A DNA stretch of 51,083 nt. It comes from a virus. Its lineage: Duplodnaviria; Heunggongvirae; Uroviricota; Caudoviricetes. A program made the translations under genes and the position numbers. This document shows positions 4,119 to 45,968 of this stretch, piece by piece. The stretch lies in IMG/VR virus record IMGVR_UViG_2541047841_000011; one strand, written 5' to 3'. Each line of letters begins with the position of its first letter. Within the stretch, counting starts at the first letter, position 1. The notes beneath the pieces are model-generated. The model did not search any database. It saw nothing but the letters and a program-made list of their open reading frames with translations, and was not told the DNA's origin.

Positions 4119-4440
4119 GAAACCAGAACATGCACACACAAAAAAACCGCTTGCCATGCCGCAATCAGTCAGGTTACATTTCCGCTGCACCTCACAAAAC
4201 GGGTGCCGGGTTTCGCAGCCTGCTGACTACACAAGCGCACAACCGCGCCAGCGTTTTTTTTGTGCGTACTGTATTGCCACGTTTTTTTCGCGTCAGAATT
4301 ATGGCGGGGCGTACGGGGCCGACTTCGGTCGGGCCGGGTTCTTGTGTAGCCGGTACTGCGAACCTCGTACGTCTCGCCACCCACAGTTTCGCAGCTCTGG
4401 ATGGTGAGTTTTCACAACTTACTACACAAGGGGCCACACC
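4119..4440 (+). other. Structured non-coding region (candidate sRNA/regulatory element)
   Basis: 320 bp without credible ORF inside an otherwise tightly packed operon; hairpin GGCCGAC-TTCG-GTCGGGCC at about 4317..4336; motif TACACAAG at about 4229 and 4424 and inverted as CTTGTGTAG at about 4343; direct repeat GTTTCGCAGC at about 4211 and 4387; T8 run at 4253..4260. Mirror 46644..46965. Confidence 0.4.
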
Positions 4441-4671
4441 ATGGCAAACCGCAAACCACACCGCGCTATCGCGGAGCGTCGTCACATCCAGACTGAAATC
4501 AACCGCAGACTTTCCCGCGCATCACGCGTCGCGCAAATCATGCACATCAATATGCTGCATGAGCGCAGCCACGCACTATCAAACATTTATTCCGCCTCTG
4601 TTTTCAGCTATCTGGCGGATGATCTGCACGAGCTTCAACAGCTCATCCAGCAGCAAAACAAACTCCATTAA
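4441..4671 (+). CDS. Hypothetical protein (76 aa), basic
   Basis: ORF directly after the structured non-coding region. Confidence 0.45.
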   Translation: MANRKPHRAIAERRHIQTEINRRLSRASRVAQIMHINMLHERSHALSNIYSASVFSYLADDLHELQQLIQQQNKLH

Positions 4672-5115: not shown

Positions 5116-7938
5116 ATGACGGCAGAGTACATCAGGGGCTGGCAACAACCGCGCCACGCAGTGGGGCGTGAAGGAACGGGGATCCCCGCTCCTGAATCCG
5201 CGCTTTCCTCCTGGCTGGATGCCTACCGGGTAGAGAACGAGCACCGCCAGGAAATGGCTGATGCGGCGTTCTCCGCAACGCCGCTGGGCAACCTGATTAA
5301 TAAAAGCCTGAACGCACAGGAAAAACAGGACAAAACCATCACACTGGCAGGAGATGCCAGAAAACAGGCACGCGGCGCGGTGGATGAAGCCATGGCCTCG
5401 CTGCGCCTGCTGCCGTCCTATCTGCGCGATCCGCTTATTCGCCACCTCTCCTTCCTGCGCAAAAAACAGGAAGCCGATCGTCAGAAAGGCAAAAAGAGCT
5501 GGCAGGCTGAACGCTACGCGCGCGGAAACCTGCGCAAAATATTCGAACGTCTGGATCGCACCGATCACCGCTGGCTGACACAGGGTTATCGCTCCCTTGC
5601 CGGACGCGAACGCCTGGACGATTTGCTTTACCTGCCGCAGCTCAACAAACACCAGATACAGACACTGGCCACCATGACGGCGGCGATGTTCAGCAGCACC
5701 TTCGAAAAACTCTGCGATGGCTTTGGCGCGACCGATGGCGAACTGACCATGGATGTAACGCTGAAGGCGTATCAGATGCTGGCCCGCATGGCGTTACACC
5801 TGCACGCCATGCCTCCACATTATGACGCACTGACAACAGACAAAGACCGGAGGAACGAACCGGACACGGAGCTGCTGCCGGGCGCAATCCTTCGCCTGAC
5901 CTGTGCAGAATGGTGGAAACGCAAACTGTGGCTGTTACGTTGCGAGTGGAGAGAAGAACAACTCCGCGCCGCCTGTCTGGTTTCCAGAAAAACATCGCCC
6001 TATCTGAGCCAGGACGCGTTAAGCGAGTTTCGCGCACAGCGCGAGAAAACACGCGATTTCCTGAAAAGTTTCATGCTGGAAAATGAAGACGGGTTCACGA
6101 TTGATCTCGAGACGGTGTATTACGCGGGAGTAAGTAACCCGGTTCACCGTAAGGCAGAAATGATGGCCACCATGAAGGGGCTGGAACTTCTGGCCGAAGC
6201 CCGTGGCGACAAAGCGGTGTTTCTGACTGTCACCTGCCCGTCAAAATACCACGCCACAACAGAGAACGGTCATCCGAATCCCAAATGGAACGGGGCCACC
6301 ATGCGCGACTCCAGCGATTACCTGGTTAACACGTTTTTTGCGGCGGTCCGCAAAAAACTGAACCGCGACGGTCTTCGCTGGTATGGCATCCGCACGGTGG
6401 AGCCTCACCATGACGGCACCGTGCACTGGCATATGATGGTCTTTGCGCATCCGGAAGAAATCGACAGCATCGTGGCCATCACCCGCGATATTGCCATTCA
6501 GGAAGACCGCCACGAGCTGGGCAATGATATTACTCCGCGCTTTAAGGCGGAGTATGTCGACGGCTCAAAAGGCACACCAACCAGCTATATCGCGACCTAC
6601 ATCGGAAAGAACCTGGACAGCCGCGCCGTGGATGGCATCGACCCGAAAACGGGCAAGCCACGCGTTGACCACGAAACCGGAAAATCAATGGCCGAGAGTG
6701 TGGAGCGCGCCATCGGCTGGGCGCGCCTTCATCGGGTCCGCCAGTTCCAGTTCTTTGGCATCCCCTCCCGTCAGGTGTGGCGTGAACTGCGCCGCCTTGC
6801 CAGCCAGATGGCACGCAACCCGGAAGGCCCGCAACGACTGAAAGATGACGCAATGGATGCGGTACTCGCTGCCGCCGATGCCGGGTGTTTTGCCACCTAC
6901 ATTGAAAAACAGGGCGGCGTACTTGTTCCACGCAAAGACTACCTGATTCGCACCGCCTACGACCTCGCAGATGAGCTGAATGATTACGGCGAACAGAGCG
7001 TACAGATTTACGGGATCTGGTCACCACTCATCGGGGAATCCTCCCGTGTGTGCACGCATCCGGATAACTGGAAACTGGTAAGACGTAAACCGGAAACGGA
7101 AGACAGCGCCCGCGAAAATGGTTTTGACCTTCAGGGCGGCCCTGCCGCCCCTTGGACTCGTGGCAATAACTGTCCCCGTGTACAGGAAACGGACAACAAC
7201 GGGACAGAACAGCCGGAAGAACGGCCAGCACCGTGGCCGCAGCTCCCTGACGGCGTTGAAGTGAACGAATGGATGCGCTCACTGAAACGACACGAACGCC
7301 GGGCGCTGATGCGTTCGCTTCGTGACAAACAGGCAAAAAACAGCAGCGATGAAATGCAGAGCTGGACACAGAGCCGCAAACAGCAGCGGCCTTTGCCTGA
7401 TAACCACGAATTACTCGCTAAAGAATGGCGGGAGTCTGCTGAATCTCTCGGCCTGCATATCGGTGAACAACAGATGCAGCACCTGTTACGGGGCGGCAGT
7501 CTGTACGTTGACGGCAGCATCATTGCACCGCAGGGATTTGAAATTGTACGCAAACCGGATACCCGCCCGGACAGCCGAATCACGCAGCTCTGGCAGCGCC
7601 TGAGCCGTAATCACGGCGTAAGCAGCACGGAGATCCGCCATAACCCGGTCTCCAGCTATCTGGCACAGCTCGGGGCATCAGACCCCGAAGCCGCCGCACG
7701 CCTGGCATCCACACTTCAGCAGGTCCAGAACACCATGAAAACACCCGTTACCGTGCTTTCTGACATGCTGCGCGCCATTCGTGACGCAGAGCACGCACAG
7801 AGAATCAGAGAAACCACTGAACGCGCCCGCCGCAAAGCAAACCTGCTGAGGACTGGCCTGACCAGTGGAAACAAAAAACAGACAGAAACGGGATTCACAA
7901 ATCCCGTAAATGAGCAAAAAACGCGCCGCGATATATGA
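5116..7938 (+). CDS. A: Rolling-circle replication initiator (P2 gpA-like HUH endonuclease), 940 aa
   Basis: HUH motif TVHWHMMVF and paired-tyrosine motif YIATYIGKN (YxxxY) typical of superfamily-I RCR initiators; position matches P2 A; about 300 extra C-terminal residues. Confidence 0.88.
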   Translation: MTAEYIRGWQQPRHAVGREGTGIPAPESALSSWLDAYRVENEHRQEMADAAFSATPLGNLINKSLNAQEKQDKTITLAGDARKQARGAVDEAMASLRLLPSYLRDPLIRHLSFLRKKQEADRQKGKKSWQAERYARGNLRKIFERLDRTDHRWLTQGYRSLAGRERLDDLLYLPQLNKHQIQTLATMTAAMFSSTFEKLCDGFGATDGELTMDVTLKAYQMLARMALHLHAMPPHYDALTTDKDRRNEPDTELLPGAILRLTCAEWWKRKLWLLRCEWREEQLRAACLVSRKTSPYLSQDALSEFRAQREKTRDFLKSFMLENEDGFTIDLETVYYAGVSNPVHRKAEMMATMKGLELLAEARGDKAVFLTVTCPSKYHATTENGHPNPKWNGATMRDSSDYLVNTFFAAVRKKLNRDGLRWYGIRTVEPHHDGTVHWHMMVFAHPEEIDSIVAITRDIAIQEDRHELGNDITPRFKAEYVDGSKGTPTSYIATYIGKNLDSRAVDGIDPKTGKPRVDHETGKSMAESVERAIGWARLHRVRQFQFFGIPSRQVWRELRRLASQMARNPEGPQRLKDDAMDAVLAAADAGCFATYIEKQGGVLVPRKDYLIRTAYDLADELNDYGEQSVQIYGIWSPLIGESSRVCTHPDNWKLVRRKPETEDSARENGFDLQGGPAAPWTRGNNCPRVQETDNNGTEQPEERPAPWPQLPDGVEVNEWMRSLKRHERRALMRSLRDKQAKNSSDEMQSWTQSRKQQRPLPDNHELLAKEWRESAESLGLHIGEQQMQHLLRGGSLYVDGSIIAPQGFEIVRKPDTRPDSRITQLWQRLSRNHGVSSTEIRHNPVSSYLAQLGASDPEAAARLASTLQQVQNTMKTPVTVLSDMLRAIRDAEHAQRIRETTERARRKANLLRTGLTSGNKKQTETGFTNPVNEQKTRRDI

Positions 7939-7983
7939 AGCGCGCACAAAACAGGCGAAAGCGGGATTTAAAAATCCCGTAAA
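7871..7983. repeat. Two 40-bp direct repeats, each with an 18-bp palindrome (parC-like centromere or ori element)
   Basis: Unit 1 at 7871..7910 (inside gpA 3-prime end) and unit 2 at 7944..7983 match at 32/40; each contains CGGGATT(T/C)A(A/C)AAATCCCG; lies directly upstream of the ParM-like gene. Mirror 43101..43213. Confidence 0.5.
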
Positions 7984-8014
7984 CGGTTAATTAACCAACA
8001 TAAGGAAAATCGAC

Positions 8015-8974
8015 ATGAAAATTTGTATCGACGACGGCTCCACCAACATCAAGCTGGCATGGACTGAGAATGGCGAACGCCGCAACGCCATCAGCCCGAA
8101 CAGCTTCAAGTCGGAATGGTCTGCGCCGTTCGGTGGCATGCAGCCCGCGAACTACATGCTTGATGGCGTGCGCTATGGTTTTGATCCGGTCAGCGATCGC
8201 TTTGTCCAGACGACCGACACGCAATACCAGTACAGCGATGTGAATGTAATCGCCATTCATCACGCGCTGGTCAAATCAGGCATCACGCCACAAGAGGTGG
8301 ATGTGGTTGTCACCCTGCCACTGAGCGAGTATTTCGAGACAAACGCACAGCCGGACATGGCCAACATCAACCGCAAAAAAGCGAACGTTATGCGCTCGGT
8401 GGAGTACCAGAACGGCGAAGCATTCACTATCCGTAACGTGCGGGTTATGCCTGAATCCATTCCGGCTGGCTTTAAAGCACTGGCTGACATGAGTCCGTTT
8501 GAATCCCTGCTGATTGTGGATTTAGGCGGAACCACGCTGGATGTGGCAAAGGTTCAAGGGCAACTGGCAGGTATCAGCCAGGTGTTTTGCGATCCACACG
8601 TAGGCGTTTCCCTGATGGCCGATGCCGTACTGTCGGTGATGGCCACTAACGGTATGCGCACCAGTCACCACATCGCCAATACCATTATCGAACATCGCCA
8701 TGATGAAGCCTGGCTGCGCCAGCACATCCACAATGACGCGCATTACGCCAGCCTGATGGCGGTTATTCGTGAAAAGGAAGAAACACTGAAACAACGCGTG
8801 ATCCGCGCGCTGGCGGTTTTTTCGGGTTACGGGCGGGTGATGGTTGTCGGTGGAGGGGCGGAGATTGTGGCACCCGCTATCCGCGAAGTCTGCGGAGTTA
8901 ATGCGACTTTCATCGCGGACGGGGTGCCACAGTTTGCTCTGGTTAATGGGCTGTACGCAATGGACAAGGAGTAA
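8015..8974 (+). CDS. parM: ParM/StbA-like actin-fold ATPase
   Basis: Actin-fold motifs IDDGSTNIK (phosphate 1), VDLGGTTLD (phosphate 2), VGGGAE (adenosine); length 319 aa as for ParM. Confidence 0.78.
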   Translation: MKICIDDGSTNIKLAWTENGERRNAISPNSFKSEWSAPFGGMQPANYMLDGVRYGFDPVSDRFVQTTDTQYQYSDVNVIAIHHALVKSGITPQEVDVVVTLPLSEYFETNAQPDMANINRKKANVMRSVEYQNGEAFTIRNVRVMPESIPAGFKALADMSPFESLLIVDLGGTTLDVAKVQGQLAGISQVFCDPHVGVSLMADAVLSVMATNGMRTSHHIANTIIEHRHDEAWLRQHIHNDAHYASLMAVIREKEETLKQRVIRALAVFSGYGRVMVVGGGAEIVAPAIREVCGVNATFIADGVPQFALVNGLYAMDKE

Positions 8975-8978
8975 ACCA

Positions 8979-9293
8979 ATGACGACACCAACCAGACGGA
9001 TAAGTTTCTATCTGAAGCCCGCCGCCGTCAAGAGTGAACAGGAGGCGTGCAATTACCTCGATAGCCTGCCAGCCTCCGAACGCAGCCGCGCGCAACGCGC
9101 GGCCTTTCTGGCTGGGCTAGCGCTCATAAAGCGCAACCCAGCATTTGCCTACTGGATGGCCGAATGGCCAGAGGACAACCTCCCCTTCAATACCGTTAGC
9201 ATCAAGGAAACATACCAGGATAATCAGCCTAGCGGAGTTGAATGCAATTTTTATAAAATTGCAAAGAATATTCAGACCTTATTCCCAGAATAA
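8979..9293 (+). CDS. parR: ParR-like centromere-binding adaptor
   Basis: Internal ATG of ORF 8844..9293 with AGGAG RBS; RRISFYLKP...ERSRAQRAAFLAGLAL matches the ParR ribbon-helix-helix N-terminus; immediately downstream of the ParM-like gene. Confidence 0.68.
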   Translation: MTTPTRRISFYLKPAAVKSEQEACNYLDSLPASERSRAQRAAFLAGLALIKRNPAFAYWMAEWPEDNLPFNTVSIKETYQDNQPSGVECNFYKIAKNIQTLFPE

Positions 9294-9341
9294 TCTGATA
9301 ATTGTATGTGAACTAATAAAATACAGACCAACACATCATTC

Positions 9342-9366
9342 TGGCACCCTTGCTAACAGGGTGCCA
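9342..9366. terminator. Bidirectional hairpin between parR-like gene and convergent cargo operon
   Basis: TGGCACCCT-TGCTAAC-AGGGTGCCA, 9-bp perfect stem, between convergent stops at 9293 and 9377. Mirror 41718..41742. Confidence 0.5.
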
Positions 9367-9376
9367 ATGTTTCAAA

Positions 9377-10219
9377 TCATGATGAAATTGCCGAAGTTTT
9401 TTTATCGTGCTGAAGTACCGCAAATGCCATTAAAACCTCAAGAGAATAGCGGCGATAATACTTAACAAAACCATAATAAAATACTCGGGATGCAGCAATA
9501 CAAAACAAGAGAAGAAAACAAAAAGGTAACAGTCTGATATTTATATCTATTAAAAAGGATAGAAGGAGCAGGAACATAAGCAACCAGACTGAAGCGAGAA
9601 AAACAAATGTAATGTTTCTACAAAAACCATACAAAGCAACATAGTTTTGCATTTTCACCTGATGATTTTTAGAATGTTCATACACATAATGATAAGCAAG
9701 GCGAAAAAGATCGCCCCTCAAGCCCTTACGTCGATATAGCGTAGATACAGAAAAAACATTTATATAACCATCTCGTATTTGCGGCCAAAAGACTTTAATA
9801 AGTATAGAATGCAGTGTGGTTTTATGATGTTCTGCTTTATCAAAAGCTGATACAGGAAATAAAAAAACTCCACGAATAAAATTAACTATACTGAACTTAG
9901 TATTATGTCGTTTTATTTTCAGGGAGCTTCTTTTAGAAAACAGATAAATTGAAGGATACCCAAGTTTACTGTTCATGTATTTTTCAATTAAACAGGATGA
10001 TAGAATAGATATGAAGTGACCTGAAATATATGATAGAACGATTAATACCACATATATAAATACACTTATTATTTCTTTATATTTCAGGATATGGTTAAGA
10101 ATACCTTCTATATAAACAGGGTTAATTTCAATAGAAAACAAAAAAAGGATAAACAGGAATAACCCACCTGGAATTAGATAGCCCAAAAAGTCATAAAATG
10201 AAAACGGATTCTGTGTCAC
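9377..10219 (-). CDS. Polytopic membrane protein (280 aa), unknown function; low-GC cargo
   Basis: GTG start with GGGGGAAG RBS; at least 4 hydrophobic helices (e.g. FLGYLIPGGLFLFILFLF, IISVFIYVVLIVLSYISGHFISIL, ITFVFLASVWLLMFLLLLSFLI, LLPFCFLLLFCIAASRVFYYGF); GC about 30-35 percent against about 55 percent in the backbone. Confidence 0.7.
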   Translation of the reverse strand: MTQNPFSFYDFLGYLIPGGLFLFILFLFSIEINPVYIEGILNHILKYKEIISVFIYVVLIVLSYISGHFISILSSCLIEKYMNSKLGYPSIYLFSKRSSLKIKRHNTKFSIVNFIRGVFLFPVSAFDKAEHHKTTLHSILIKVFWPQIRDGYINVFSVSTLYRRKGLRGDLFRLAYHYVYEHSKNHQVKMQNYVALYGFCRNITFVFLASVWLLMFLLLLSFLIDINIRLLPFCFLLLFCIAASRVFYYGFVKYYRRYSLEVLMAFAVLQHDKKTSAISS

Positions 10220-10258: not shown

Positions 10259-10756
10259 TTATTTGTTTTTCCGTAAAGGATTAGCTTTCCATCTTCTTAC
10301 TAACCATTCGAATTCTTGATATGTAGTATCCGAATTAATGCTTTCTCTGATTGCTTTAATTAATGGCTCGGCAATATCATATGTCTCTACAACTGTTGTG
10401 TAAGATGTTCTTTTTATCATTTTTTCATCATAAATACCTTCACGAATACTTACAGCAACTCGCTCGTAAAAATTTAAAATATATTGAAATTTTCGGCGCT
10501 CGGCCATTTCTTCATCTGTTATTATGCAACCATCACAAGGAAAAACATAAGAACGAAATGATTTGCCTGAACGATGCACTTGTTTCAGGGTATGCAATGA
10601 CTCTATATATTGCATATCTTGCCGACTCTCAAAAAGAAAGTTGGCCGTTTGAGTTTTTTTTGCGGTACGCACATTGTAGATAATGGTTCCAATGGCAACC
10701 AAAACGCCAAGCAGAACAATAGTATTGCTGATGATTTGTAGTGTTATTGGGTTCAT
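10259..10756 (-). CDS. Single-pass membrane protein (165 aa) with soluble C-terminal domain, unknown function; low-GC cargo
   Basis: N-terminal helix ITLQIISNTIVLLGVLVAIGTIIYNV then charged domain with CDGC motif; 39 bp upstream of the 280-aa gene on same strand, so likely an operon. Confidence 0.7.
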   Translation of the reverse strand: MNPITLQIISNTIVLLGVLVAIGTIIYNVRTAKKTQTANFLFESRQDMQYIESLHTLKQVHRSGKSFRSYVFPCDGCIITDEEMAERRKFQYILNFYERVAVSIREGIYDEKMIKRTSYTTVVETYDIAEPLIKAIRESINSDTTYQEFEWLVRRWKANPLRKNK

Positions 10757-22613: not shown

Positions 22614-24848
22614 ATGAGTACCACAACACGAAAATTTAAAACCGTTATCACCGATACAGGTGCAAAAAAATTAGCTCAGGCAGCCGCGCCAGATGGTAAG
22701 CCTGTCCGCCTGACTCATATGGCCGTGGGCGACGGTGGCGGCACGTTGCCCACACCAGACAGTAAGCAGACCCGTCTGGTGCATGAGGTGTGGCGACACA
22801 CTGTTAATCGCGTCATCCTGGACGCAACACATCAGAACCGCATTATTGCGGAGCTGGTTATACCTCCTGAAACGGGCGGATTCTGGATCCGGGAAATTGG
22901 TGTATTTGATGAGCACGGCGATTTAATCGCGGTGGGCAATACTGCCGAAAGTTACAAGCCAACCGTTGCCGAGGGGTCCGGACGTGCACAAACATTTCGC
23001 ACCATTCTGACCGTATCCAGCACTGCCAGCGTGGCGCTTACCGTGGATAACACCATGGTGATGGCCACAGTGGATTACGTGGATGACAAACTGAAAGAGC
23101 ATGAACAGTCACGACGTCACCCGGATGCCTCGCTGACCGCAAAAGGCTTTGTTCAACTCAGTAGCGCCACTAACAGCGATTCTGAAACGCTGGCCGCAAC
23201 GCCGAAAGCGGTTAAGGCCGCGTATGACCTGGCTAACGGAAAATATACCGCTCAGGACGCCACGACGGCACGAAAAGGGATAGTCCAGCTCAGCAGTGCA
23301 ACCAACAGCACGTCTGAAACGCAGGCTGCAACGCCGAAAGCAGTAAAGGCGGCATATGACCTTGCTAACGCAAAATATACCGCTCAGGACGCAACGACGG
23401 CACGAAAAGGGATAGTTCAGCTCAGTAGCGCCACTAACAGCCCGTCTGAAACGCTGGCTGCGACACCAAAAGCGGTTAAGGCGGTAATGGATGAAACGAA
23501 CAAGAAAGCGCCTTTAAACAGTCCTGCGCTGACCGGAACGCCAACAACGCCAACTGCGCGACAGGGAACGAATAATACCCAAATCGCAAGCACGGCTTTC
23601 GTTATGGCTGCGATTGCCGCCCTTGTAGATTCGTCACCTGACGCACTGAATACGCTGAACAAGTTAGCGGCGGCGCTGGGAAACGACCCGAATTTTGCGA
23701 CCACCATGACTAACGCGCTTGCGGGTAAGCAACCGAAAGATGCCACCCTGACGGCGCTGGCCGGGCTTGCTACTGCGGCAGACAGGTTTCCGTATTTTAC
23801 GGGGAATGATGTCGCCAGCCTGGCAACCCTGACAAAAGTCGGGCGGGATATTCTTGCGAAATCGACCGTTGCTGCCGTTATCGAATACCTCGGTTTACAG
23901 GAAACGGTAAATCAGGCTTCTGGCGCATTACAGAAAAACCAGAACGGCGCAGATATTCCGGGTAAAGATACCTTCACCAAAAACATTGGTGCCTGCCGCG
24001 CATATAGCGCATGGCTGAATATTGGTGGCGATAGTCAGGTCTGGACAACTGCGCAATTTATTTCGTGGCTGGAGAGTCAGGGGGCATTTAACCATCCTTA
24101 CTGGATGTGCAAAGGCTCATGGGCTTATGCAAATAATAAGGTCATTACAGATACAGGTTGCGGAAATATTTGTCTTGCAGGTGCTGTGGTGGAAGTTATT
24201 GGCACTCGCGGCGCAATGACCATACGCGTTACTACGCCGAGTACGTCCAGCGGCGGCGGAATTACTAACGCTCAATTCACCTATATTAATCATGGTGATG
24301 CTTATGCTCCTGGCTGGCGACGAGACTACAACACGAAAAACCAGCAGCCTGCATTTGCTTTAGGGCAAACAGGACGCAGGGTCGCAAATGATAAAGCTGT
24401 TGGCTGGAACTGGAATAGCGGTGTTTATGATGCAGATATCAGTGGTGCATCGACATTAATCCTCCACTTCAATATGAATGCGGGGAGTTGCCCTGCTGTA
24501 CAGTTCCGCGTGAATTACAGGAACGGCGGTATCTTTTATCGTTCAGCGCGTGATGGTTATGGCTTTGAAGCTAACTGGTCAGAGTTTTACACCACAACCC
24601 GCAAACCCTCTGCGGGGGATGTTGGTGCATATACGCAGGCAGAATGTAATTCAAGGTTTATTACAGGTATTCGCTTGGGCGGTCTGTCATCTGTTCAGAC
24701 ATGGAATGGTCCCGGCTGGTCTGACAGGTCAGGTTATGTCGTTACGGGTTCAGTTAACGGAAACCGTGATGAATTAATTGATACAACTCAGGCAAGGCCA
24801 GTTCAGTATTGCATTAATGGGACGTGGTATAACGCGGGGAGTATTTAA
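22614..24848 (+). CDS. H: Tail fibre protein H, variant 1 (constant N-terminus plus variable C-terminus Hv1)
   Basis: 744 aa; N-terminal part with 44-aa SSATNS...ATPKAVK repeats identical to the 842-aa mirror ORF up to ...[10 protein letters not shown]; C-terminus diverges after the 26-bp crossover site at 23878..23903. Confidence 0.9.
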   Translation: MSTTTRKFKTVITDTGAKKLAQAAAPDGKPVRLTHMAVGDGGGTLPTPDSKQTRLVHEVWRHTVNRVILDATHQNRIIAELVIPPETGGFWIREIGVFDEHGDLIAVGNTAESYKPTVAEGSGRAQTFRTILTVSSTASVALTVDNTMVMATVDYVDDKLKEHEQSRRHPDASLTAKGFVQLSSATNSDSETLAATPKAVKAAYDLANGKYTAQDATTARKGIVQLSSATNSTSETQAATPKAVKAAYDLANAKYTAQDATTARKGIVQLSSATNSPSETLAATPKAVKAVMDETNKKAPLNSPALTGTPTTPTARQGTNNTQIASTAFVMAAIAALVDSSPDALNTLNKLAAALGNDPNFATTMTNALAGKQPKDATLTALAGLATAADRFPYFTGNDVASLATLTKVGRDILAKSTVAAVIEYLGLQETVNQASGALQKNQNGADIPGKDTFTKNIGACRAYSAWLNIGGDSQVWTTAQFISWLESQGAFNHPYWMCKGSWAYANNKVITDTGCGNICLAGAVVEVIGTRGAMTIRVTTPSTSSGGGITNAQFTYINHGDAYAPGWRRDYNTKNQQPAFALGQTGRRVANDKAVGWNWNSGVYDADISGASTLILHFNMNAGSCPAVQFRVNYRNGGIFYRSARDGYGFEANWSEFYTTTRKPSAGDVGAYTQAECNSRFITGIRLGGLSSVQTWNGPGWSDRSGYVVTGSVNGNRDELIDTTQARPVQYCINGTWYNAGSI
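23141..23490 (+). repeat. 132-bp tandem repeat (2.6 units) inside tail fibre gene
   Basis: Units start at 23141, 23273, 23405; encode 44-aa fibre repeat [44 protein letters not shown]. Mirror 27594..27943. Confidence 0.85.
23878..23903. other. Left crossover site for a Gin/Hin/Cin/Pin-family serine invertase (gix-like)
   Basis: TTATCGAATACC-TC-GGTTTACAGGAA, a 12-2-12 imperfect palindrome matching the Din-family site as I recall it (Mu gix about TTATCCAAAACC-TC-GGTTTACAGGAA), at the constant/variable junction of the fibre gene. Confidence 0.75.
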
Positions 24849-24850
24849 CG

Positions 24851-25384
24851 ATGATGCACTTAAAAAACATTACTGCTGGCAACCCTAAAACAAAAGAGCA
24901 ATACCAGCTAACGAAACAATTTAACATCAAATGGCTTTATTCAGAGGATGGAAAAAACTGGTATGAGGAACAAAAGAATTTCCAGCCAGACACTTTGAAA
25001 ATGGTCTATGACCATAACGGCGTTATTATTTGTATTGAAAAGGATGTTTCAGCAATTAATCCGGAAGGCGCAAGCGTCGTTGAATTACCTGATATTACAG
25101 CAAATCGCCGTGCTGACATTTCGGGTAAATGGATGTTCAAAGATGGCGTAGTGGTAAAGCGAACTTATACCGAGGAAGAGCAGAGGCAGCAGGCGGAAAA
25201 TGAAAAGCAAAGCCTGCTACAGCTCGTCAGGGATAAAACCCAGCTATGGGACTCACAGCTACGGCTGGGCATCATTTCCGACGAGAATAAACAAAAATTA
25301 ACAGAGTGGATGCTCTTTGCGCAGAAAGTCGAATCTACAGACACTTCCAGCCTGCCAGTAACGTTTCCCGAACAACCAGAATGA
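24851..25384 (+). CDS. G: Tail fibre assembly protein, variant 1 (P2 gpG / Mu U-like)
   Basis: 177 aa, MMHLKNITAGNPKT...[14 protein letters not shown]; immediately follows Hv1. Confidence 0.85.
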   Translation: MMHLKNITAGNPKTKEQYQLTKQFNIKWLYSEDGKNWYEEQKNFQPDTLKMVYDHNGVIICIEKDVSAINPEGASVVELPDITANRRADISGKWMFKDGVVVKRTYTEEEQRQQAENEKQSLLQLVRDKTQLWDSQLRLGIISDENKQKLTEWMLFAQKVESTDTSSLPVTFPEQPE

Positions 25385-25387
25385 GAG

Positions 25388-25414
25388 AAGGCCTGATATC
25401 GGGCCTTAATTTTT
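25388..25414. terminator. Bidirectional hairpin between convergent tail-fibre assembly genes
   Basis: AAGGCC-TGATATC-GGGCCTT followed by AATTTTT; lies in the 28-bp gap between stops at 25384 and 25413. Confidence 0.5.
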
Positions 25415-25940
25415 ACTCAGGCTTTTGTGGCCATTCGGGCTTTGCCGTATCCACACGGCTGACCATAACACTGTAGCGTTCCCATGACTCCAGTCGTGCG
25501 CATTCCTCATCCGTCGCCATATTCAGCCTGACAGCGCGTTCCAGTGGCTGAATAACGCTTTCCGCTTCGGAAAGTAACGCGGCCTTTTGTGATTCTGCCT
25601 GTTGTTGCTGTTCATCTGCCGTATAAATCCGTTTAACCACAGCACCATCCTTAAACATCCATTTACCTGAGTCGTCAGCACGTCGGTTGGAGGTAATATC
25701 AGGAACCTCAACAACGCTAAAACCTTCAGGATTAAGCGTTGAAGCATCTCTGGTGATAGCGACAATAATATTATTTTCATCGTAAACAATCTTTATTGTG
25801 TCTGACTGAAAGTTCTTCACTTCCTCATACCAGTTTTTCCCGTCTTCAGTGTAAAGCCAGATGACTCCATGCTTCTTTGTTAACTCATACTGTTCCAGTG
25901 TTTTAGCGTTACCCGCTTTTATGTTCTTTAAGTGCATCAT
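25413..25940 (-). CDS. Tail fibre assembly protein, variant 2 (Mu U-prime-like)
   Basis: 175 aa, [14 protein letters not shown]...[14 protein letters not shown]; homologous to but distinct from variant 1. Confidence 0.85.
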
Positions 25941-25941
25941 A

Positions 25942-28470
25942 TTAAACGCTCGCTACATTATACCATGTGCCATTTATATACTTTTGAACGGGTCTGTAAT
26001 AAACACCCGCAATATTATCGGCGGAGTTGGAACCTGTATCCTGAACATTTATACCAGACAATACATGACCTGAAGGGCACTGGAAGTTCCATGTTTGCCA
26101 GTTGTTCACACCATAATATTGCTGTGAGCCAAGCCGAACATCTTTCACATATCTGGAATCAATGTTACCCCAGTTGCTTGGTTGTATCTGACCGTTTACA
26201 GCAAATGTCACCGAGTTATCTGTATTTCGCTGACTATAGAAATGCCAGCCTGAATCATCACCAAGCTCTGCAACAGTTGGTCTTGACGAATTTCCCCACA
26301 AGTTAAATGATGCATTACGGGCAGCGGTATTTGCACTTGAAAGTGTGAATAACTTACTTTCCCCAGCCTGAATACCCTTTAATGATATTGCTGAGCCATT
26401 TCTAAAGCGGAATACATGCACACCATTAGCATAAGCATCCAGCACCCCATCACCATTTTGTTTAAACCCAGTATCGTTATCTCCTAAAACTATTGAATTT
26501 CCCCCCAGGGCATTAGCCGTTCCAATCCCCAGATTTCCGCTAAAAATGGCATTAATACCGAATATTGAGTGAGAACAATAAAACCCTCGCCCATTGTTAA
26601 AATCCAGAATGGCTTGTGCGTTCGTGCTTTCTGTCGCGGGATTAGTTGCTCCCCACTTATATGTTGTTTGACCGACGGTATAATCCTGAGTTGGAACAAT
26701 AACCGTTAGCCCTTCTTCGGCAAAAACTCGCACAGGAAAAGCCCTGCCTTCAACGTAAAAAACGCTGCATACATCATCTTCTTTAAGGCTTGTTACAATG
26801 GAATGGATTGCGCGCTCATTAGTCTGATACGTCGAAAAATAACCTGCCGCATATGAACCACGATCAGTCCAGCCACCAGGCATTACCATTCCATTGAATT
26901 CGCAGTTATTCATTGCGTAATCACCACTGGCAGATGTGGTCGTTATAATCACTCTGGAAGCCAGCTCGCCAGTGCTGCCTGTGGAACGCCGGAAAATAAC
27001 TGGATACCACTTTCCACCAACTGCATTAGACGGCGCATTAAATGCGTACTGCCGCATTCCTTTTTTCTTATCCACCTCGCCTTTGCTGTAAACATTAATG
27101 TTACTCAGGAAGCGATCCTTATCAGGAATATCCGCGCCGTTCTGTTTTTTTTGTAATGCGCCAGAAGCCAGATTTACCGTTTCCTGCAAACCGAGGTATT
27201 CGATAACGGCAGCAACGGTCGATTTCGCAAGAATATCCCGCCCGACTTTTGTCAGGGTTGCCAGGCTGGCGACATCATTCCCCGTAAAATACGGAAACCT
27301 GTCTGCCGCAGTAGCAAGCCCGGCCAGCGCCGTCAGGGTGGCATCTTTCGGTTGCTTACCCGCAAGCGCGTTAGTCATGGTGGTCGCAAAATTCGGGTCG
27401 TTTCCCAGCGCCGCCGCTAACTTGTTCAGCGTATTCAGTGCGTCAGGTGACGAATCTACAAGGGCGGCAATCGCAGCCATAACGAAAGCCGTGCTTGCGA
27501 TTTGGGTATTATTCGTTCCCTGTCGCGCAGTTGGCGTTGTTGGCGTTCCGGTCAGCGCAGGACTGTTTAAAGGCGCTTTCTTGTTCGTTTCATCCATTAC
27601 CGCCTTAACCGCTTTTGGTGTCGCAGCCAGCGTTTCAGACGGGCTGTTAGTGGCGCTACTGAGCTGAACTATCCCTTTTCGTGCCGTCGTTGCGTCCTGA
27701 GCGGTATATTTTGCGTTAGCAAGGTCATATGCCGCCTTTACTGCTTTCGGCGTTGCAGCCTGCGTTTCAGACGTGCTGTTGGTTGCACTGCTGAGCTGGA
27801 CTATCCCTTTTCGTGCCGTCGTGGCGTCCTGAGCGGTATATTTTCCGTTAGCCAGGTCATACGCGGCCTTAACCGCTTTCGGCGTTGCGGCCAGCGTTTC
27901 AGAATCGCTGTTAGTGGCGCTACTGAGTTGAACAAAGCCTTTTGCGGTCAGCGAGGCATCCGGGTGACGTCGTGACTGTTCATGCTCTTTCAGTTTGTCA
28001 TCCACGTAATCCACTGTGGCCATCACCATGGTGTTATCCACGGTAAGCGCCACGCTGGCAGTGCTGGATACGGTCAGAATGGTGCGAAATGTTTGTGCAC
28101 GTCCGGACCCCTCGGCAACGGTTGGCTTGTAACTTTCGGCAGTATTGCCCACCGCGATTAAATCGCCGTGCTCATCAAATACACCAATTTCCCGGATCCA
28201 GAATCCGCCCGTTTCAGGAGGTATAACCAGCTCCGCAATAATGCGGTTCTGATGTGTTGCGTCCAGGATGACGCGATTAACAGTGTGTCGCCACACCTCA
28301 TGCACCAGACGGGTCTGCTTACTGTCTGGTGTGGGCAACGTGCCGCCACCGTCGCCCACGGCCATATGAGTCAGGCGGACAGGCTTACCATCTGGCGCGG
28401 CTGCCTGAGCTAATTTTTTTGCACCTGTATCGGTGATAACGGTTTTAAATTTTCGTGTTGTGGTACTCAT
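25942..28470 (-). CDS. Tail fibre protein H, variant 2 (constant N-terminus plus variable C-terminus Hv2, P2 H-like tip)
   Basis: 842 aa; first roughly 430 aa identical to variant 1; C-terminus ends ...[13 protein letters not shown]...RYVKDVRLG...[13 protein letters not shown], which resembles my recollection of the P2 gpH end. Confidence 0.9.
27181..27206. other. Right crossover site for a Din-family serine invertase (gix-like)
   Basis: TTCCTGCAAACC-GA-GGTATTCGATAA, reverse complement of the left site except one base (27187). Confidence 0.75.
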
Positions 28471-43145: not shown

Positions 43146-45968
43146 TCATATATCGCGGCGCGTTTTTTGCTCATTTACGGGATTTGTGAATCCCGTTTCT
43201 GTCTGTTTTTTGTTTCCACTGGTCAGGCCAGTCCTCAGCAGGTTTGCTTTGCGGCGGGCGCGTTCAGTGGTTTCTCTGATTCTCTGTGCGTGCTCTGCGT
43301 CACGAATGGCGCGCAGCATGTCAGAAAGCACGGTAACGGGTGTTTTCATGGTGTTCTGGACCTGCTGAAGTGTGGATGCCAGGCGTGCGGCGGCTTCGGG
43401 GTCTGATGCCCCGAGCTGTGCCAGATAGCTGGAGACCGGGTTATGGCGGATCTCCGTGCTGCTTACGCCGTGATTACGGCTCAGGCGCTGCCAGAGCTGC
43501 GTGATTCGGCTGTCCGGGCGGGTATCCGGTTTGCGTACAATTTCAAATCCCTGCGGTGCAATGATGCTGCCGTCAACGTACAGACTGCCGCCCCGTAACA
43601 GGTGCTGCATCTGTTGTTCACCGATATGCAGGCCGAGAGATTCAGCAGACTCCCGCCATTCTTTAGCGAGTAATTCGTGGTTATCAGGCAAAGGCCGCTG
43701 CTGTTTGCGGCTCTGTGTCCAGCTCTGCATTTCATCGCTGCTGTTTTTTGCCTGTTTGTCACGAAGCGAACGCATCAGCGCCCGGCGTTCGTGTCGTTTC
43801 AGTGAGCGCATCCATTCGTTCACTTCAACGCCGTCAGGGAGCTGCGGCCACGGTGCTGGCCGTTCTTCCGGCTGTTCTGTCCCGTTGTTGTCCGTTTCCT
43901 GTACACGGGGACAGTTATTGCCACGAGTCCAAGGGGCGGCAGGGCCGCCCTGAAGGTCAAAACCATTTTCGCGGGCGCTGTCTTCCGTTTCCGGTTTACG
44001 TCTTACCAGTTTCCAGTTATCCGGATGCGTGCACACACGGGAGGATTCCCCGATGAGTGGTGACCAGATCCCGTAAATCTGTACGCTCTGTTCGCCGTAA
44101 TCATTCAGCTCATCTGCGAGGTCGTAGGCGGTGCGAATCAGGTAGTCTTTGCGTGGAACAAGTACGCCGCCCTGTTTTTCAATGTAGGTGGCAAAACACC
44201 CGGCATCGGCGGCAGCGAGTACCGCATCCATTGCGTCATCTTTCAGTCGTTGCGGGCCTTCCGGGTTGCGTGCCATCTGGCTGGCAAGGCGGCGCAGTTC
44301 ACGCCACACCTGACGGGAGGGGATGCCAAAGAACTGGAACTGGCGGACCCGATGAAGGCGCGCCCAGCCGATGGCGCGCTCCACACTCTCGGCCATTGAT
44401 TTTCCGGTTTCGTGGTCAACGCGTGGCTTGCCCGTTTTCGGGTCGATGCCATCCACGGCGCGGCTGTCCAGGTTCTTTCCGATGTAGGTCGCGATATAGC
44501 TGGTTGGTGTGCCTTTTGAGCCGTCGACATACTCCGCCTTAAAGCGCGGAGTAATATCATTGCCCAGCTCGTGGCGGTCTTCCTGAATGGCAATATCGCG
44601 GGTGATGGCCACGATGCTGTCGATTTCTTCCGGATGCGCAAAGACCATCATATGCCAGTGCACGGTGCCGTCATGGTGAGGCTCCACCGTGCGGATGCCA
44701 TACCAGCGAAGACCGTCGCGGTTCAGTTTTTTGCGGACCGCCGCAAAAAACGTGTTAACCAGGTAATCGCTGGAGTCGCGCATGGTGGCCCCGTTCCATT
44801 TGGGATTCGGATGACCGTTCTCTGTTGTGGCGTGGTATTTTGACGGGCAGGTGACAGTCAGAAACACCGCTTTGTCGCCACGGGCTTCGGCCAGAAGTTC
44901 CAGCCCCTTCATGGTGGCCATCATTTCTGCCTTACGGTGAACCGGGTTACTTACTCCCGCGTAATACACCGTCTCGAGATCAATCGTGAACCCGTCTTCA
45001 TTTTCCAGCATGAAACTTTTCAGGAAATCGCGTGTTTTCTCGCGCTGTGCGCGAAACTCGCTTAACGCGTCCTGGCTCAGATAGGGCGATGTTTTTCTGG
45101 AAACCAGACAGGCGGCGCGGAGTTGTTCTTCTCTCCACTCGCAACGTAACAGCCACAGTTTGCGTTTCCACCATTCTGCACAGGTCAGGCGAAGGATTGC
45201 GCCCGGCAGCAGCTCCGTGTCCGGTTCGTTCCTCCGGTCTTTGTCTGTTGTCAGTGCGTCATAATGTGGAGGCATGGCGTGCAGGTGTAACGCCATGCGG
45301 GCCAGCATCTGATACGCCTTCAGCGTTACATCCATGGTCAGTTCGCCATCGGTCGCGCCAAAGCCATCGCAGAGTTTTTCGAAGGTGCTGCTGAACATCG
45401 CCGCCGTCATGGTGGCCAGTGTCTGTATCTGGTGTTTGTTGAGCTGCGGCAGGTAAAGCAAATCGTCCAGGCGTTCGCGTCCGGCAAGGGAGCGATAACC
45501 CTGTGTCAGCCAGCGGTGATCGGTGCGATCCAGACGTTCGAATATTTTGCGCAGGTTTCCGCGCGCGTAGCGTTCAGCCTGCCAGCTCTTTTTGCCTTTC
45601 TGACGATCGGCTTCCTGTTTTTTGCGCAGGAAGGAGAGGTGGCGAATAAGCGGATCGCGCAGATAGGACGGCAGCAGGCGCAGCGAGGCCATGGCTTCAT
45701 CCACCGCGCCGCGTGCCTGTTTTCTGGCATCTCCTGCCAGTGTGATGGTTTTGTCCTGTTTTTCCTGTGCGTTCAGGCTTTTATTAATCAGGTTGCCCAG
45801 CGGCGTTGCGGAGAACGCCGCATCAGCCATTTCCTGGCGGTGCTCGTTCTCTACCCGGTAGGCATCCAGCCAGGAGGAAAGCGCGGATTCAGGAGCGGGG
45901 ATCCCCGTTCCTTCACGCCCCACTGCGTGGCGCGGTTGTTGCCAGCCCCTGATGTACTCTGCCGTCAT
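43146..45968 (-). CDS. A: Rolling-circle replication initiator gpA-like, mirror copy
   Basis: Exact inverted copy of 5116..7938. Confidence 0.88.
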   Translation of the reverse strand: MTAEYIRGWQQPRHAVGREGTGIPAPESALSSWLDAYRVENEHRQEMADAAFSATPLGNLINKSLNAQEKQDKTITLAGDARKQARGAVDEAMASLRLLPSYLRDPLIRHLSFLRKKQEADRQKGKKSWQAERYARGNLRKIFERLDRTDHRWLTQGYRSLAGRERLDDLLYLPQLNKHQIQTLATMTAAMFSSTFEKLCDGFGATDGELTMDVTLKAYQMLARMALHLHAMPPHYDALTTDKDRRNEPDTELLPGAILRLTCAEWWKRKLWLLRCEWREEQLRAACLVSRKTSPYLSQDALSEFRAQREKTRDFLKSFMLENEDGFTIDLETVYYAGVSNPVHRKAEMMATMKGLELLAEARGDKAVFLTVTCPSKYHATTENGHPNPKWNGATMRDSSDYLVNTFFAAVRKKLNRDGLRWYGIRTVEPHHDGTVHWHMMVFAHPEEIDSIVAITRDIAIQEDRHELGNDITPRFKAEYVDGSKGTPTSYIATYIGKNLDSRAVDGIDPKTGKPRVDHETGKSMAESVERAIGWARLHRVRQFQFFGIPSRQVWRELRRLASQMARNPEGPQRLKDDAMDAVLAAADAGCFATYIEKQGGVLVPRKDYLIRTAYDLADELNDYGEQSVQIYGIWSPLIGESSRVCTHPDNWKLVRRKPETEDSARENGFDLQGGPAAPWTRGNNCPRVQETDNNGTEQPEERPAPWPQLPDGVEVNEWMRSLKRHERRALMRSLRDKQAKNSSDEMQSWTQSRKQQRPLPDNHELLAKEWRESAESLGLHIGEQQMQHLLRGGSLYVDGSIIAPQGFEIVRKPDTRPDSRITQLWQRLSRNHGVSSTEIRHNPVSSYLAQLGASDPEAAARLASTLQQVQNTMKTPVTVLSDMLRAIRDAEHAQRIRETTERARRKANLLRTGLTSGNKKQTETGFTNPVNEQKTRRDI

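Follow-up and report, generated by a model that had tools for sequence, protein, structure and literature searches.

The gene gpA, at positions 5116 to 7938 (plus strand) of the virus record IMGVR_UViG_2541047841_000011, codes for GpA, which initiates replication in a P88-like prophage (Xuanwuvirus, Peduoviridae) of E. coli. We put at roughly 85% the probability of the full account given here, in which a P88-like GpA carries its origin of replication inside its own gene, ends in a modular C terminus, and runs on into parC, the putative centromere of the partition cassette that adjoins it. The 51,083-nucleotide stretch of DNA that was analyzed is called the window throughout.

RESULTS

gpA is the initiator gene of a P88-like prophage. 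The gene is a real open reading frame with an ATG start, and its product is a P88-type rolling-circle replication initiator (HUH endonuclease) of 940 residues. The protein matched Pfam PF05840 (Phage_GPA) with an E value of 3.3e-131, residues 179 to 503 covering profile positions 1 to 321 of 321, and it matched PHROG 91, "nicking at origin of replication," with an E value of 5e-275. PHROG 6857 and PHROG 91 both cover it end to end, last residue included. Moreover, the protein is 100% identical to WP_001539197.1, a "replication endonuclease" of NZ_AP040186.1, and gp16 of Escherichia phage P88 (YP_009113059.1), also a "replication endonuclease," likewise has 940 residues and shares ~97% DNA identity. 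The neighbors in P88 (for background on P88 and phiSM, see PMC6456863) are those of the window, with a 121-residue open reading frame upstream and ParM and a partition protein downstream, and the two A proteins show essentially no difference. The P88 parR allele and the cargo beyond it differ from those of the window, however, and homology to P88 ends at window position 9033. The window repeats itself as a perfect inverted duplication and thus holds gpA twice, the second time as an exact mirror copy at 43146 to 45968 on the minus strand. The window is itself a fold-back assembly artefact through an invertible tail-fibre segment.

The catalytic domain, by Pfam match and motifs, spans residues 179 to 503 (5650 to 6624, plus strand, as for all coding features below). 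Its translation contains the HUH motif H437-W-H439 (6424 to 6432) and the YxxxY motif Y-I-A-T-Y with Y491 and Y495 (6586 to 6600), both lying before about residue 500 as originally predicted. H437, H439, Y491, and Y495 were invariant in 22 homologs. By homology with P2 A, GpA would nick phage DNA at an ori within its own coding sequence, with the metal site of the HUH motif and the tyrosines Y491 and Y495, and would prime rolling-circle replication. The full-length AF2 model was of low confidence (pLDDT 59.7), and Foldseek searches with it returned weak matches to the HUH nucleases 7lcc, AAV Rep OBD, and 4er8. Searching the whole gpA sequence against PDB chains gave no match at E values up to 1, and PADLOC reported nothing for A or ParM.

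The predicted origin lies inside gpA and is flanked by mosaic junctions. The predicted ori core (7147 to 7176, plus strand) encodes A-P-W-T-R-G-N-N-C-P and can be aligned both to the nick site annotated in P2 and to the ori of 186, with a nick predicted near 7154. P2 A and 186 A likewise have an in-gene ori, at a conserved ...AAP..(V/G)NNC coding stretch. Sequence comparison revealed a wider invariant block around the core (7114 to 7176); five diverged A genes did not differ at a single synonymous site of the 30-nt core, and a Hafnia relative matched 60 nt at the ori without a change though dS is 0.8 to 2.2 elsewhere. Mosaic junctions fall on either side of the core, at 7146 and 7180. The 186-like phage L008 is unrelated to the window or ~69% identical before 7146 and is 97.4% identical from 7146 to 9400. 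Phages of the CP-933T type diverge from the window at 7180, those with an A of 871 or 879 residues diverge at 7352, and L090 diverges at 7838. The ori core appears to act as a recombination junction for module exchange, and its invariant and sharply bounded 30 nt can help in deciding where a hotspot begins and ends.

The length excess over P2 A is distributed along the protein. The original prediction placed gpA in the P2 family and held it to be longer than P2 A, and both points are borne out by the Phage_GPA match and by a length of 940 residues against 761 for P2 A (NP_046795.1); 186 A (NP_052289.1) has 694. P2 A and 186 A share with gpA the Phage_GPA domain, the HUH and YxxxY motifs, and an overall identity of 33 to 34%, but they lack an N-terminal insert of 56 residues, a module at residues 760 to 868, a tail helix, and the read-in into parC. 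Moreover, P2 has orf91, tin, and old downstream of A instead of parMRC. The excess over P2 A comprises five parts, namely the insert, a linker, the module, the helix at residues 877 to 917, and 21 read-in codons. About 60 of the 179 extra residues precede the motif encoded by the ori (its NNC begins at residue 684, compared with 624 in P2), and most of these are the insert (residues ~20 to 75; 5173 to 5340), which appears as a gap opposite P2 A in the MAFFT alignment, is absent from 186 A too, and is predicted by AF2 to be helical (pLDDT 64 to 71). The original prediction had missed the insert. It had also described the last ~300 residues as without counterpart in P2 A, a statement that stands for residues 760 to 868, for which profile comparison with the P2 A C terminus was not significant (hhalign probability 0.8%), but not for residues 641 to 686, which are clearly homologous to P2 A and 186 A and include the ori-encoded AAP..NNC stretch. 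Similarity to P2 A is weak past residue 686 and fades by about residue 735. Nor is this region of low complexity or especially rich in basic and acidic residues, as had been supposed: residues 641 to 940 have a Shannon entropy of 4.06 bits, zero low-complexity 12-mers, and K+R (15.7%) and D+E (13.3%) contents close to those of the rest of gpA.

The C terminus consists of a linker, a conserved module, and a tail helix. The linker (residues ~687 to 759; 7177 to 7392) is hydrophilic, poorly conserved by alignment with P2 A, and modeled mostly at low confidence (pLDDT 24 to 63). The module that follows (residues 760 to 868, ~110 residues; 7393 to 7719) has distant relatives on other A C termini, carries the motif LLRG..W..H..IRxxP..Y..ML..DP, has a dN/dS of ~0.23, and is predicted by AF2 to form two helices, a three-stranded sheet, and then further helices. 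A separate AF2 model of residues 741 to 940 reached a pLDDT of 70.3 (~80 to 85 at residues 764 to 814), and Foldseek searches with it gave no significant match, the best E values being 0.7 in PDB and 0.1 in BFVD. Pfam and NCBIfam contain no model for the C-terminal part of gpA, and NCBIfam contains none for A at all. Thus, gpA carries a conserved ~110-residue C-terminal module with neither a domain model nor a fold match. MAFFT paired LLRGGSLYVDG of the module with LARGATVNYDG of P2 A, a pairing that was rejected as homology because the profile comparison was not significant. Sampling of the module across taxa is poor, as a third homology search with the module profile gave mostly short fragments.

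The tail at residues 869 to 919 (7720 to 7872) is lineage specific by homolog comparison and contains the predicted long helix (AF2 pLDDT 74 to 92). It is missing from all of the distant module-bearing relatives, whose A ends there, whereas Hafnia, the 186-like mosaic, and L090 have it. The helix keeps its reading frame and has a dN/dS below 1 (0.47 for residues 886 to 919), and therefore it probably has a function of some kind. Every other part of gpA is more strongly constrained than the tail. Because the same ori core joins unrelated C-terminal modules in sister phages, we infer that the linker, module, and helix may be adaptors or regulators and not ori-recognition elements.

A type II partition cassette lies flush against the end of A. 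The cassette (parC-parM-parR) stands at the head of the gpA-gpQ hotspot. parM (8015 to 8974) encodes an actin-like segregation ATPase of 319 residues that matched Pfam StbA_N (E = 1e-81), the ParM C-terminal domain (E = 1e-68), and the R1 ParM structure 1mwk (E = 3e-92). parR (8979 to 9293) encodes a centromere-binding adaptor of 104 residues that matched Pfam PF10784, Plasmid_stab_B (E = 7e-29), and, weakly, pB171 ParR (2jd3); the N-terminal PTRRISFYLKP, which includes the N-terminal strand, and the C-terminal FPE were invariant in 46 ParR variants. The ParMRC system of R1, like par2 of pB171, has the same order of centromere, parM, and parR, and its ParM is homologous over the full length. 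Plasmid ParM proteins are at most 51% identical to that of the window, however, and R1 ParMRC is plasmid borne, whereas the cassette of the window is on an integrated prophage.

Upstream of parM, a search for direct repeats and palindromes found two 39-nt direct repeats that are 82% identical and 73 nt apart. Repeat 1 (7872 to 7910) is within the gpA reading frame, with its palindrome CGGGATTCACAAATCCCG at 7889 to 7906, and repeat 2 (7945 to 7983) is intergenic, with its palindrome CGGGATTTAAAAATCCCG at 7962 to 7979, which leaves 36 nt to the start codon of parM downstream. Both repeats carry the palindrome CGGGATT-N4-AATCCCG, which in its exact form occurs elsewhere in the window only as two mirror-image copies. 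The arms of the dyad are conserved and the center is variable (52 distinct sequences), and palindrome 1 is imperfect (GGGACT) in ~34 of 81 loci. The Hafnia relative, the A protein of which is 62% identical, has both units as well, again 73 nt apart, and this agreement is beyond chance. Repeat 1 is 79% identical to its Hafnia counterpart, with flanks at 50 to 54%, and repeat 2 is 85% identical; these values are not far above the 70% third-codon identity of the Hafnia parM.

The two repeats likely constitute the ParR-binding centromere of the ParM/ParR cassette. A ribbon-helix-helix ParR would bind the GGGATT-N4-AATCCC dyads, giving a putative centromere, and the repeats probably also serve as a putative operator of parMR; a simple scan of 7600 to 9500 found no sigma-70-like promoter in parC. 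Where parC has been studied, in R1 and pSK41, the site has many iterons, ten in the case of R1. R1-type centromeres are arrays of direct iterons, whereas the window has two 18-bp dyads 73 bp apart, and the parM of IncI1, which among the plasmid genes examined is the closest, is preceded by direct repeats that are T-rich and not by these dyads. Thus, the architecture is unlike known iteron arrays, but the position upstream of parM fits parC.

The gpA frame reads into repeat 1. The last 21 codons (920 to 940) and the stop codon (7936 to 7938) form a read-in segment (7873 to 7938) that is parC repeat 1 DNA, and the left edge of the cassette is exactly repeat 1. In L085, a short A of 871 residues is followed by a different open reading frame of 155 residues, the last 20 codons of which are repeat 1 DNA, and homology with the window resumes at 7874. 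How A ends depends on the frame: it ends in ...KKQTETGFTNPVNEQKTRRDI in the window and in ...KNRQKRDSQIP in L008 and L084, and in Hafnia it ends in ...KQKRDS with the stop within the palindrome. AF2 predicted residues 918 to 940 to be disordered. We conclude that these final 21 codons do not make up a domain; the A frame would simply run into repeat 1 until it meets a stop, and about 2% of the annotated gpA "protein" would be translated, putative centromere DNA. A BLASTP match (E = 6e-11) between the A tail and the 155-residue product of L085 is due to the shared read-in segment only, and we therefore do not claim that the tail helix was derived from that open reading frame.

DISCUSSION

The original prediction held that the final codons of gpA overlap the first palindrome-containing repeat, and so they do, and it assigned that repeat to a partition locus, which agrees with the parM and parR genes that follow directly. 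It went too far, however, in taking the overlap for a physical coupling of initiator and partition site, as the cassette begins at repeat 1, another open reading frame takes the place of A in L085, and frame and stop vary. The best reading of the apparent coupling is that it came about incidentally, through insertion of a cassette immediately next to the end of A. A functional alternative is that the P88-type tail (residues 869 to 940) is an adaptor linking the initiator to the ParMRC segrosome, such that the overlap of stop and parC was selected; the initiator would sit covalently on nicked DNA, and the partition machinery would receive the products of replication straight from it. Consistent with an adaptor, the tail adjoins parMRC in P88-like phages, Hafnia, and the 186-like mosaic and mostly co-occurs with it, ori, parR, and all that lies between them move together, and the helix is maintained in frame under dN/dS below 1. 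Yet L085 has parMRC and an A without the tail, L090 retains the helix of the tail as far as residue ~908 but has other cargo in place of parMRC, the terminal peptide, predicted to be disordered, shifts with the frame in natural variants, and no part of gpA is less constrained than the tail. We consider a selected adaptor quite improbable. Also unlikely, if slightly less so, is that the interval from ori to parR (7146 to ~9175) is a self-contained, mobile module of origin, initiator C terminus, centromere, and motor that P2-like lineages swap by recombination at the invariant ori core; the C-terminal module and tail of the P88-type A would then aid ParMRC, and the prophages could be maintained or segregated as episomes, which would make them facultative phage-plasmids.

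Two further alternatives would deny the repeats a role as ParR sites. The palindromes might act as hairpins, either in RNA, as a stabilizer, processing site, or attenuator of an A-parM transcript, or in single-stranded DNA, as a rolling-circle hairpin such as a second-strand origin. A stem of 8 bp can form at each palindrome, the folding energy of the 149-nt region is -35.7 kcal/mol (z = -5.1), and palindrome 1 scores as terminator-like on the minus strand. Such a z score is expected from any two similar palindromes, however, and neither hairpin is followed by a U-run on the plus strand. Moreover, hairpin 1 shows 0 to 1 compensatory changes versus 28 pair-breaking changes among the 52 distinct sequences, and the elements travel with parMR and not with A, such that hairpin function seems very unlikely. 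Least credible of all is that the repeats belong to the origin of replication as iteron-like binding sites for A, although they are near the A gene and many origins have repeats. The original prediction spoke of "partition/ori" elements, but the homolog of the P2 and 186 ori, with its extreme conservation at the DNA level, is within the gene at 7147 to 7176, ~700 bp upstream of repeat 1. Furthermore, L006 and L009 share the ori core and have neither the repeats nor parMR, and the repeats accompany parMR even when another gene separates both from A. The repeats are better explained as the likely centromere of the adjoining cassette.

That gpA has partition genes as neighbors was already known, as the genes are annotated in the reference phage and the hotspot literature mentions them. 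The study of Rousset et al. 2022 (PMC9122126) describes the gpA-gpQ interval of P2-like phages as a cargo hotspot, reports a putative partition system there in about one-quarter of P2-like phages, and places it where the cassette of the window is, between gpA and the portal gene. The passages of PMC9122126 that were searched contain nothing on the left edge of the cassette, on A reading into parC, or on recombination junctions at the ori. Read-in tails of this kind inflate and diversify the annotated ends of proteins at cargo hotspots.

Finally, gpA was originally presented as oversized, with the concession that common P2-like A proteins of this length with a conserved, known C-terminal domain would argue otherwise. 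The length is common and the C terminus is conserved, but the latter has no Pfam or NCBIfam name. The form of 940 to 946 residues is the P88-type protein and makes up clusters of 16,881, 3,025, and 707 member sequences, and it is hardly unusual, as the gpA locus occurs in ~1,222 of 5,426 complete E. coli genomes (~22%). As about one E. coli genome in five has the gene and a reference phage has it annotated, its presence here carries little weight as a discovery. Of the 1,635 places of the locus, 1,633 are chromosomal, and a lone 34.5-kb record with the locus (NZ_CP148288.1) was deposited as a plasmid.

gpA is a common form of the initiator in E. coli

The gpA ORF begins with ATG and runs on the plus strand from 5116 to 7938, encoding 940 amino acids. 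Residues 179 to 503 match the Pfam Phage_GPA domain over its full length (E = 3e-131), and both catalytic motifs precede residue 500 or so, as originally predicted: HUH as H437-W-H439 and the paired tyrosines as Y491/Y495. All four residues (H437, H439, Y491, and Y495) are invariant across 22 homologs. The protein had been called oversized, and it does exceed its homologs P2 A (761 amino acids) and 186 A (694 amino acids). A 4.2-kb block, however, shares 97 to 98% identity with genomes of Xuanwuvirus (Peduoviridae), Escherichia phage P88 among them, and P88 gp16, a "replication endonuclease," is likewise 940 amino acids long, with ParM and a partition protein encoded next. Among 5,426 complete E. 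coli genomes, 1,222 carried the block with at least 80% coverage; 1,633 of its 1,635 placements were chromosomal, and a prophage adjoining pdxB in strain NR1430 matched it with 100% identity. Moreover, clusters of 940- to 946-amino-acid proteins contain 16,881, 3,025, and 707 member sequences, and matches to PHROGs 6857 and 91 extend to the final residue. Thus, the "oversized" gpA is the common E. coli form of the protein. We note that NZ_CP148288.1 (34,461 bp, from E. coli of a cat) is a complete P88-like genome deposited as a circular "plasmid," perhaps a replicative form after excision or else a true episome.

The novelty of the arrangement was overstated. The gene, its neighbors, and their adjacency are already known, and Rousset et al. 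(2022, PMC9122126) showed that cargo accumulates in a hotspot between gpA and gpQ of P2-like phages, about a quarter of which have a putative partition system there. The original prediction had named long A proteins with a known, conserved C-terminal domain as its counterexample; such length is common and the C terminus is conserved, but no named domain was matched there in Pfam or NCBIfam. That unannotated C-terminal module, the edge of the partition cassette with its read-in translation, and the use of the ori core as a junction for exchange may be undescribed elsewhere, and all are minor.

The predicted origin lies upstream of the C-terminal extension

Where the extra length resides follows from comparison with P2 A and 186 A. 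In a three-way alignment, gpA differs from both by a 56-residue N-terminal insert at approximately residues 20 to 75. The NNC motif encoded by the origin is at residue 684 in gpA and 624 in P2 A, and thus approximately 60 of the extra residues precede the origin and approximately 119 follow it. Both the nick annotated in P2 (codon ~620) and the ori of 186 align to 7147-7176, and a nick near 7154 is predicted from the P2 annotation. A 30-nt core, GCCCCTTGGACTCGTGGCAATAACTGTCCC, is shared without a single difference, even at synonymous positions, by five genes: those of the window, a Hafnia phage, a 186-like mosaic, a Shigella boydii prophage, and a CP-933T-type prophage. The Hafnia A protein is 62% identical to gpA with a dS of 0.8 to 2.2 outside the core, and the identical run at the origin is 60 nt. 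Judged by these alignments, the origin appears to lie within gpA and not in the 39-nt repeats near its 3' end, and the original prediction conflated parC, the putative centromere, with ori. Codons 504 to 690 (6625-7185) have a dS of 0.81 relative to the Hafnia ortholog, about half that of neighboring segments (1.4 to 2.2), which may reflect DNA-level constraint around the origin or more recent exchange.

The ori core also appears to be a recombination junction. A 186-like phage (L008), whose early genes include CI, CII, Fil, and Dam, switches to 97.4% identity with the window precisely at 7146 and holds it through 9400, the CP-933T type (L009) diverges at 7180, and further junctions occur at 7352, 7838, and 7874. 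Between 7146 and 7180, the invariant core is the exact join of unrelated A-gene halves, upstream in L008 and downstream in L009. We suggest that the nick site or its conserved sequence drives module exchange among P2-like lineages.

A C-terminal module and a tail helix

Contrary to the original prediction, the last ~300 residues are not low complexity: residues 641 to 940 have an entropy of 4.06 bits and zero low-complexity 12-mers, with charge content on par with the rest of the protein. Beyond the origin, a hydrophilic, poorly modeled linker (residues 688 to 759, pLDDT 24 to 63) leads to a conserved module (760 to 868), a tail (869 to 919), and 21 terminal codons (920 to 940). When residues 690 to 940 were queried against 1.84 billion representative proteins, only 26 hits were returned, and the distant ones (28 to 35% identity) all align at approximately residues 774 to 860. 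These distant matches occupy the C termini of other A proteins or of A-protein fragments, share the signature LLRG...W...H...IRxxP...Y...ML...DP, and all end 10 to 20 residues past it. A profile of the module had no significant match in P2 A (hhalign probability, 0.8%). AlphaFold2 modeled two helices, a three-stranded sheet, and more helices, with pLDDT of ~80 to 85 in the first half, and Foldseek found no significant match to the model in PDB or BFVD. Because sister phages join identical ori cores to C-terminal modules of unrelated kinds, we infer that this one serves as an accessory or adaptor and not in recognizing the origin.

The tail contains a helix (residues 877 to 917, pLDDT 74 to 92) whose carriers with parMRC, the partition cassette, directly downstream are P88-like phages, Hafnia, and the 186-like mosaic. 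One related locus (L090) keeps the helix to residue ~908 with a Dam methylase and an AAA ATPase in place of parMRC, and another (L085) has parMRC without the helix. Relative to Hafnia, dN/dS is 0.47 for the helix and 0.15 to 0.23 for the core, rough estimates because dS is saturated. From these comparisons, the tail appears to be a weakly constrained part of the P88-type A gene that is not obligately tied to the partition cassette.

The last codons of gpA read into a putative parC

Two copies of a 39-nt direct repeat (7872-7910 and 7945-7983), each with the dyad CGGGATT-N4-AATCCCG, lie immediately 5' of parM (8015-8974; Pfam StbA_N and ParM C-terminal domains) and parR (8979-9293; Pfam Plasmid_stab_B). 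The encoded ParM matches R1 ParM structures (E = 3e-92). In Hafnia, two units again stand exactly 73 bp apart; the repeats there are 79% and 85% identical, compared to 50% identity in the spacer and 54% in the A tail. Among relatives, the dyad arms GGGA(T/C)T and AATCCC are retained around a variable central 4 nt (52 distinct sequences). The N-terminal PTRRISFYLKP and C-terminal FPE tip of ParR are invariant in 46 of 46 variants with differing middles; by analogy with ParR of type II systems, these ends would be a ribbon-helix-helix DNA-reading strand and a ParM-contacting tip. The repeats are likely parC, with only two sites. The nearest plasmid parM examined instead has T-rich direct iterons upstream, an architecture unlike the two dyads here, and a scan of the repeat region found no consensus promoter. 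Alternatively, the repeats might act as RNA or single-strand hairpins, and the region does fold well (z = -5.1). Such a score is trivial for two palindromes, however, and hairpin 1 shows 0 to 1 compensatory versus 28 pair-breaking changes, such that hairpin function is not supported. Across parR and 81 related loci, ParR alleles are mutually 55 to 73% identical beside a ParM conserved at 93 to 100%, and homology between the window and P88 stops 18 codons into parR.

That the final codons overlap a palindromic repeat was borne out, as repeat 1 falls within the final 22 codons of gpA. In L085, a short A protein of 871 amino acids is followed by a separate 155-amino-acid ORF and then parM and parR; the last 20 codons of that ORF are repeat-1 sequence (...KQTKTGFTNPVNEQKTRSDI), and DNA homology with the window restarts at 7874, where the repeat unit begins (±1 nt). 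The ending of A among relatives depends on frame. Most end in ...KKQTETGFTNPVNEQKTRRDI, L008 and another related locus (L084) have an A-run one A shorter and end in ...KNRQKRDSQIP at a TAA just past the dyad, Hafnia A ends in ...KQKRDS with TGA in the dyad center, and in two loci the frame continues into repeat 2. Moreover, AlphaFold2 predicts residues 918 to 940 to be disordered. The last 21 codons thus appear to be translated putative parC: the L085 ORF, the homology start at 7874, the frame-dependent endings, and the predicted disorder argue that the DNA element is conserved and the peptide incidental.

Window structure and neighboring cargo

Nucleotides 1-23896 recur, perfectly inverted, at 27188-51083, around a 3.3-kb center (23897-27187). 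The window corresponds to 14886 to 38854 of L004, a real-chromosome reference, and then to L004 14886 to 42095 in reverse complement, with the join in a 96-nt overlap (23874-23969). The center is an invertible tail-fiber segment with two alternative fiber C termini and two chaperones, and the real prophage used for comparison (NZ_AP040186.1) has an invertase and the remaining tail genes beside it, which the window lacks. The window thus appears to be a fold-back mis-join through inverted repeats of the invertible segment, and for that reason alone every feature of the gpA finding is present twice. The invertible region (22614-28470) is of the Mu G/P1 C type; its fiber ORFs (744 amino acids, plus strand; 842 amino acids, minus strand) have a common constant N-terminal part and alternative C termini, with opposed fiber-assembly chaperones between them (24851-25384, plus; 25413-25940, minus).

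Upstream of gpA, Rfam identified an isrK Hfq-binding sRNA (4187-4261, 57.5 bits) and a C4 antisense RNA (4297-4384, 83.2 bits), each with a mirror copy in the other arm, and a 76-amino-acid "derepression protein" ORF (4441-4671) lies just downstream of both. Together, they look like a P1/P7-style antisense-RNA immunity or antirepressor module of a P2-like early operon, and mechanical ORFs called at 4187-4384 are probably spurious. After parR are two AT-rich hotspot cargo genes on the minus strand, both "hypothetical" in RefSeq: a 280-amino-acid multipass membrane-like protein (9377-10219) that PADLOC matched weakly to Csx27 (E = 1e-5) and a DUF4760 protein (10259-10756). The two could be a defense or exclusion pair.
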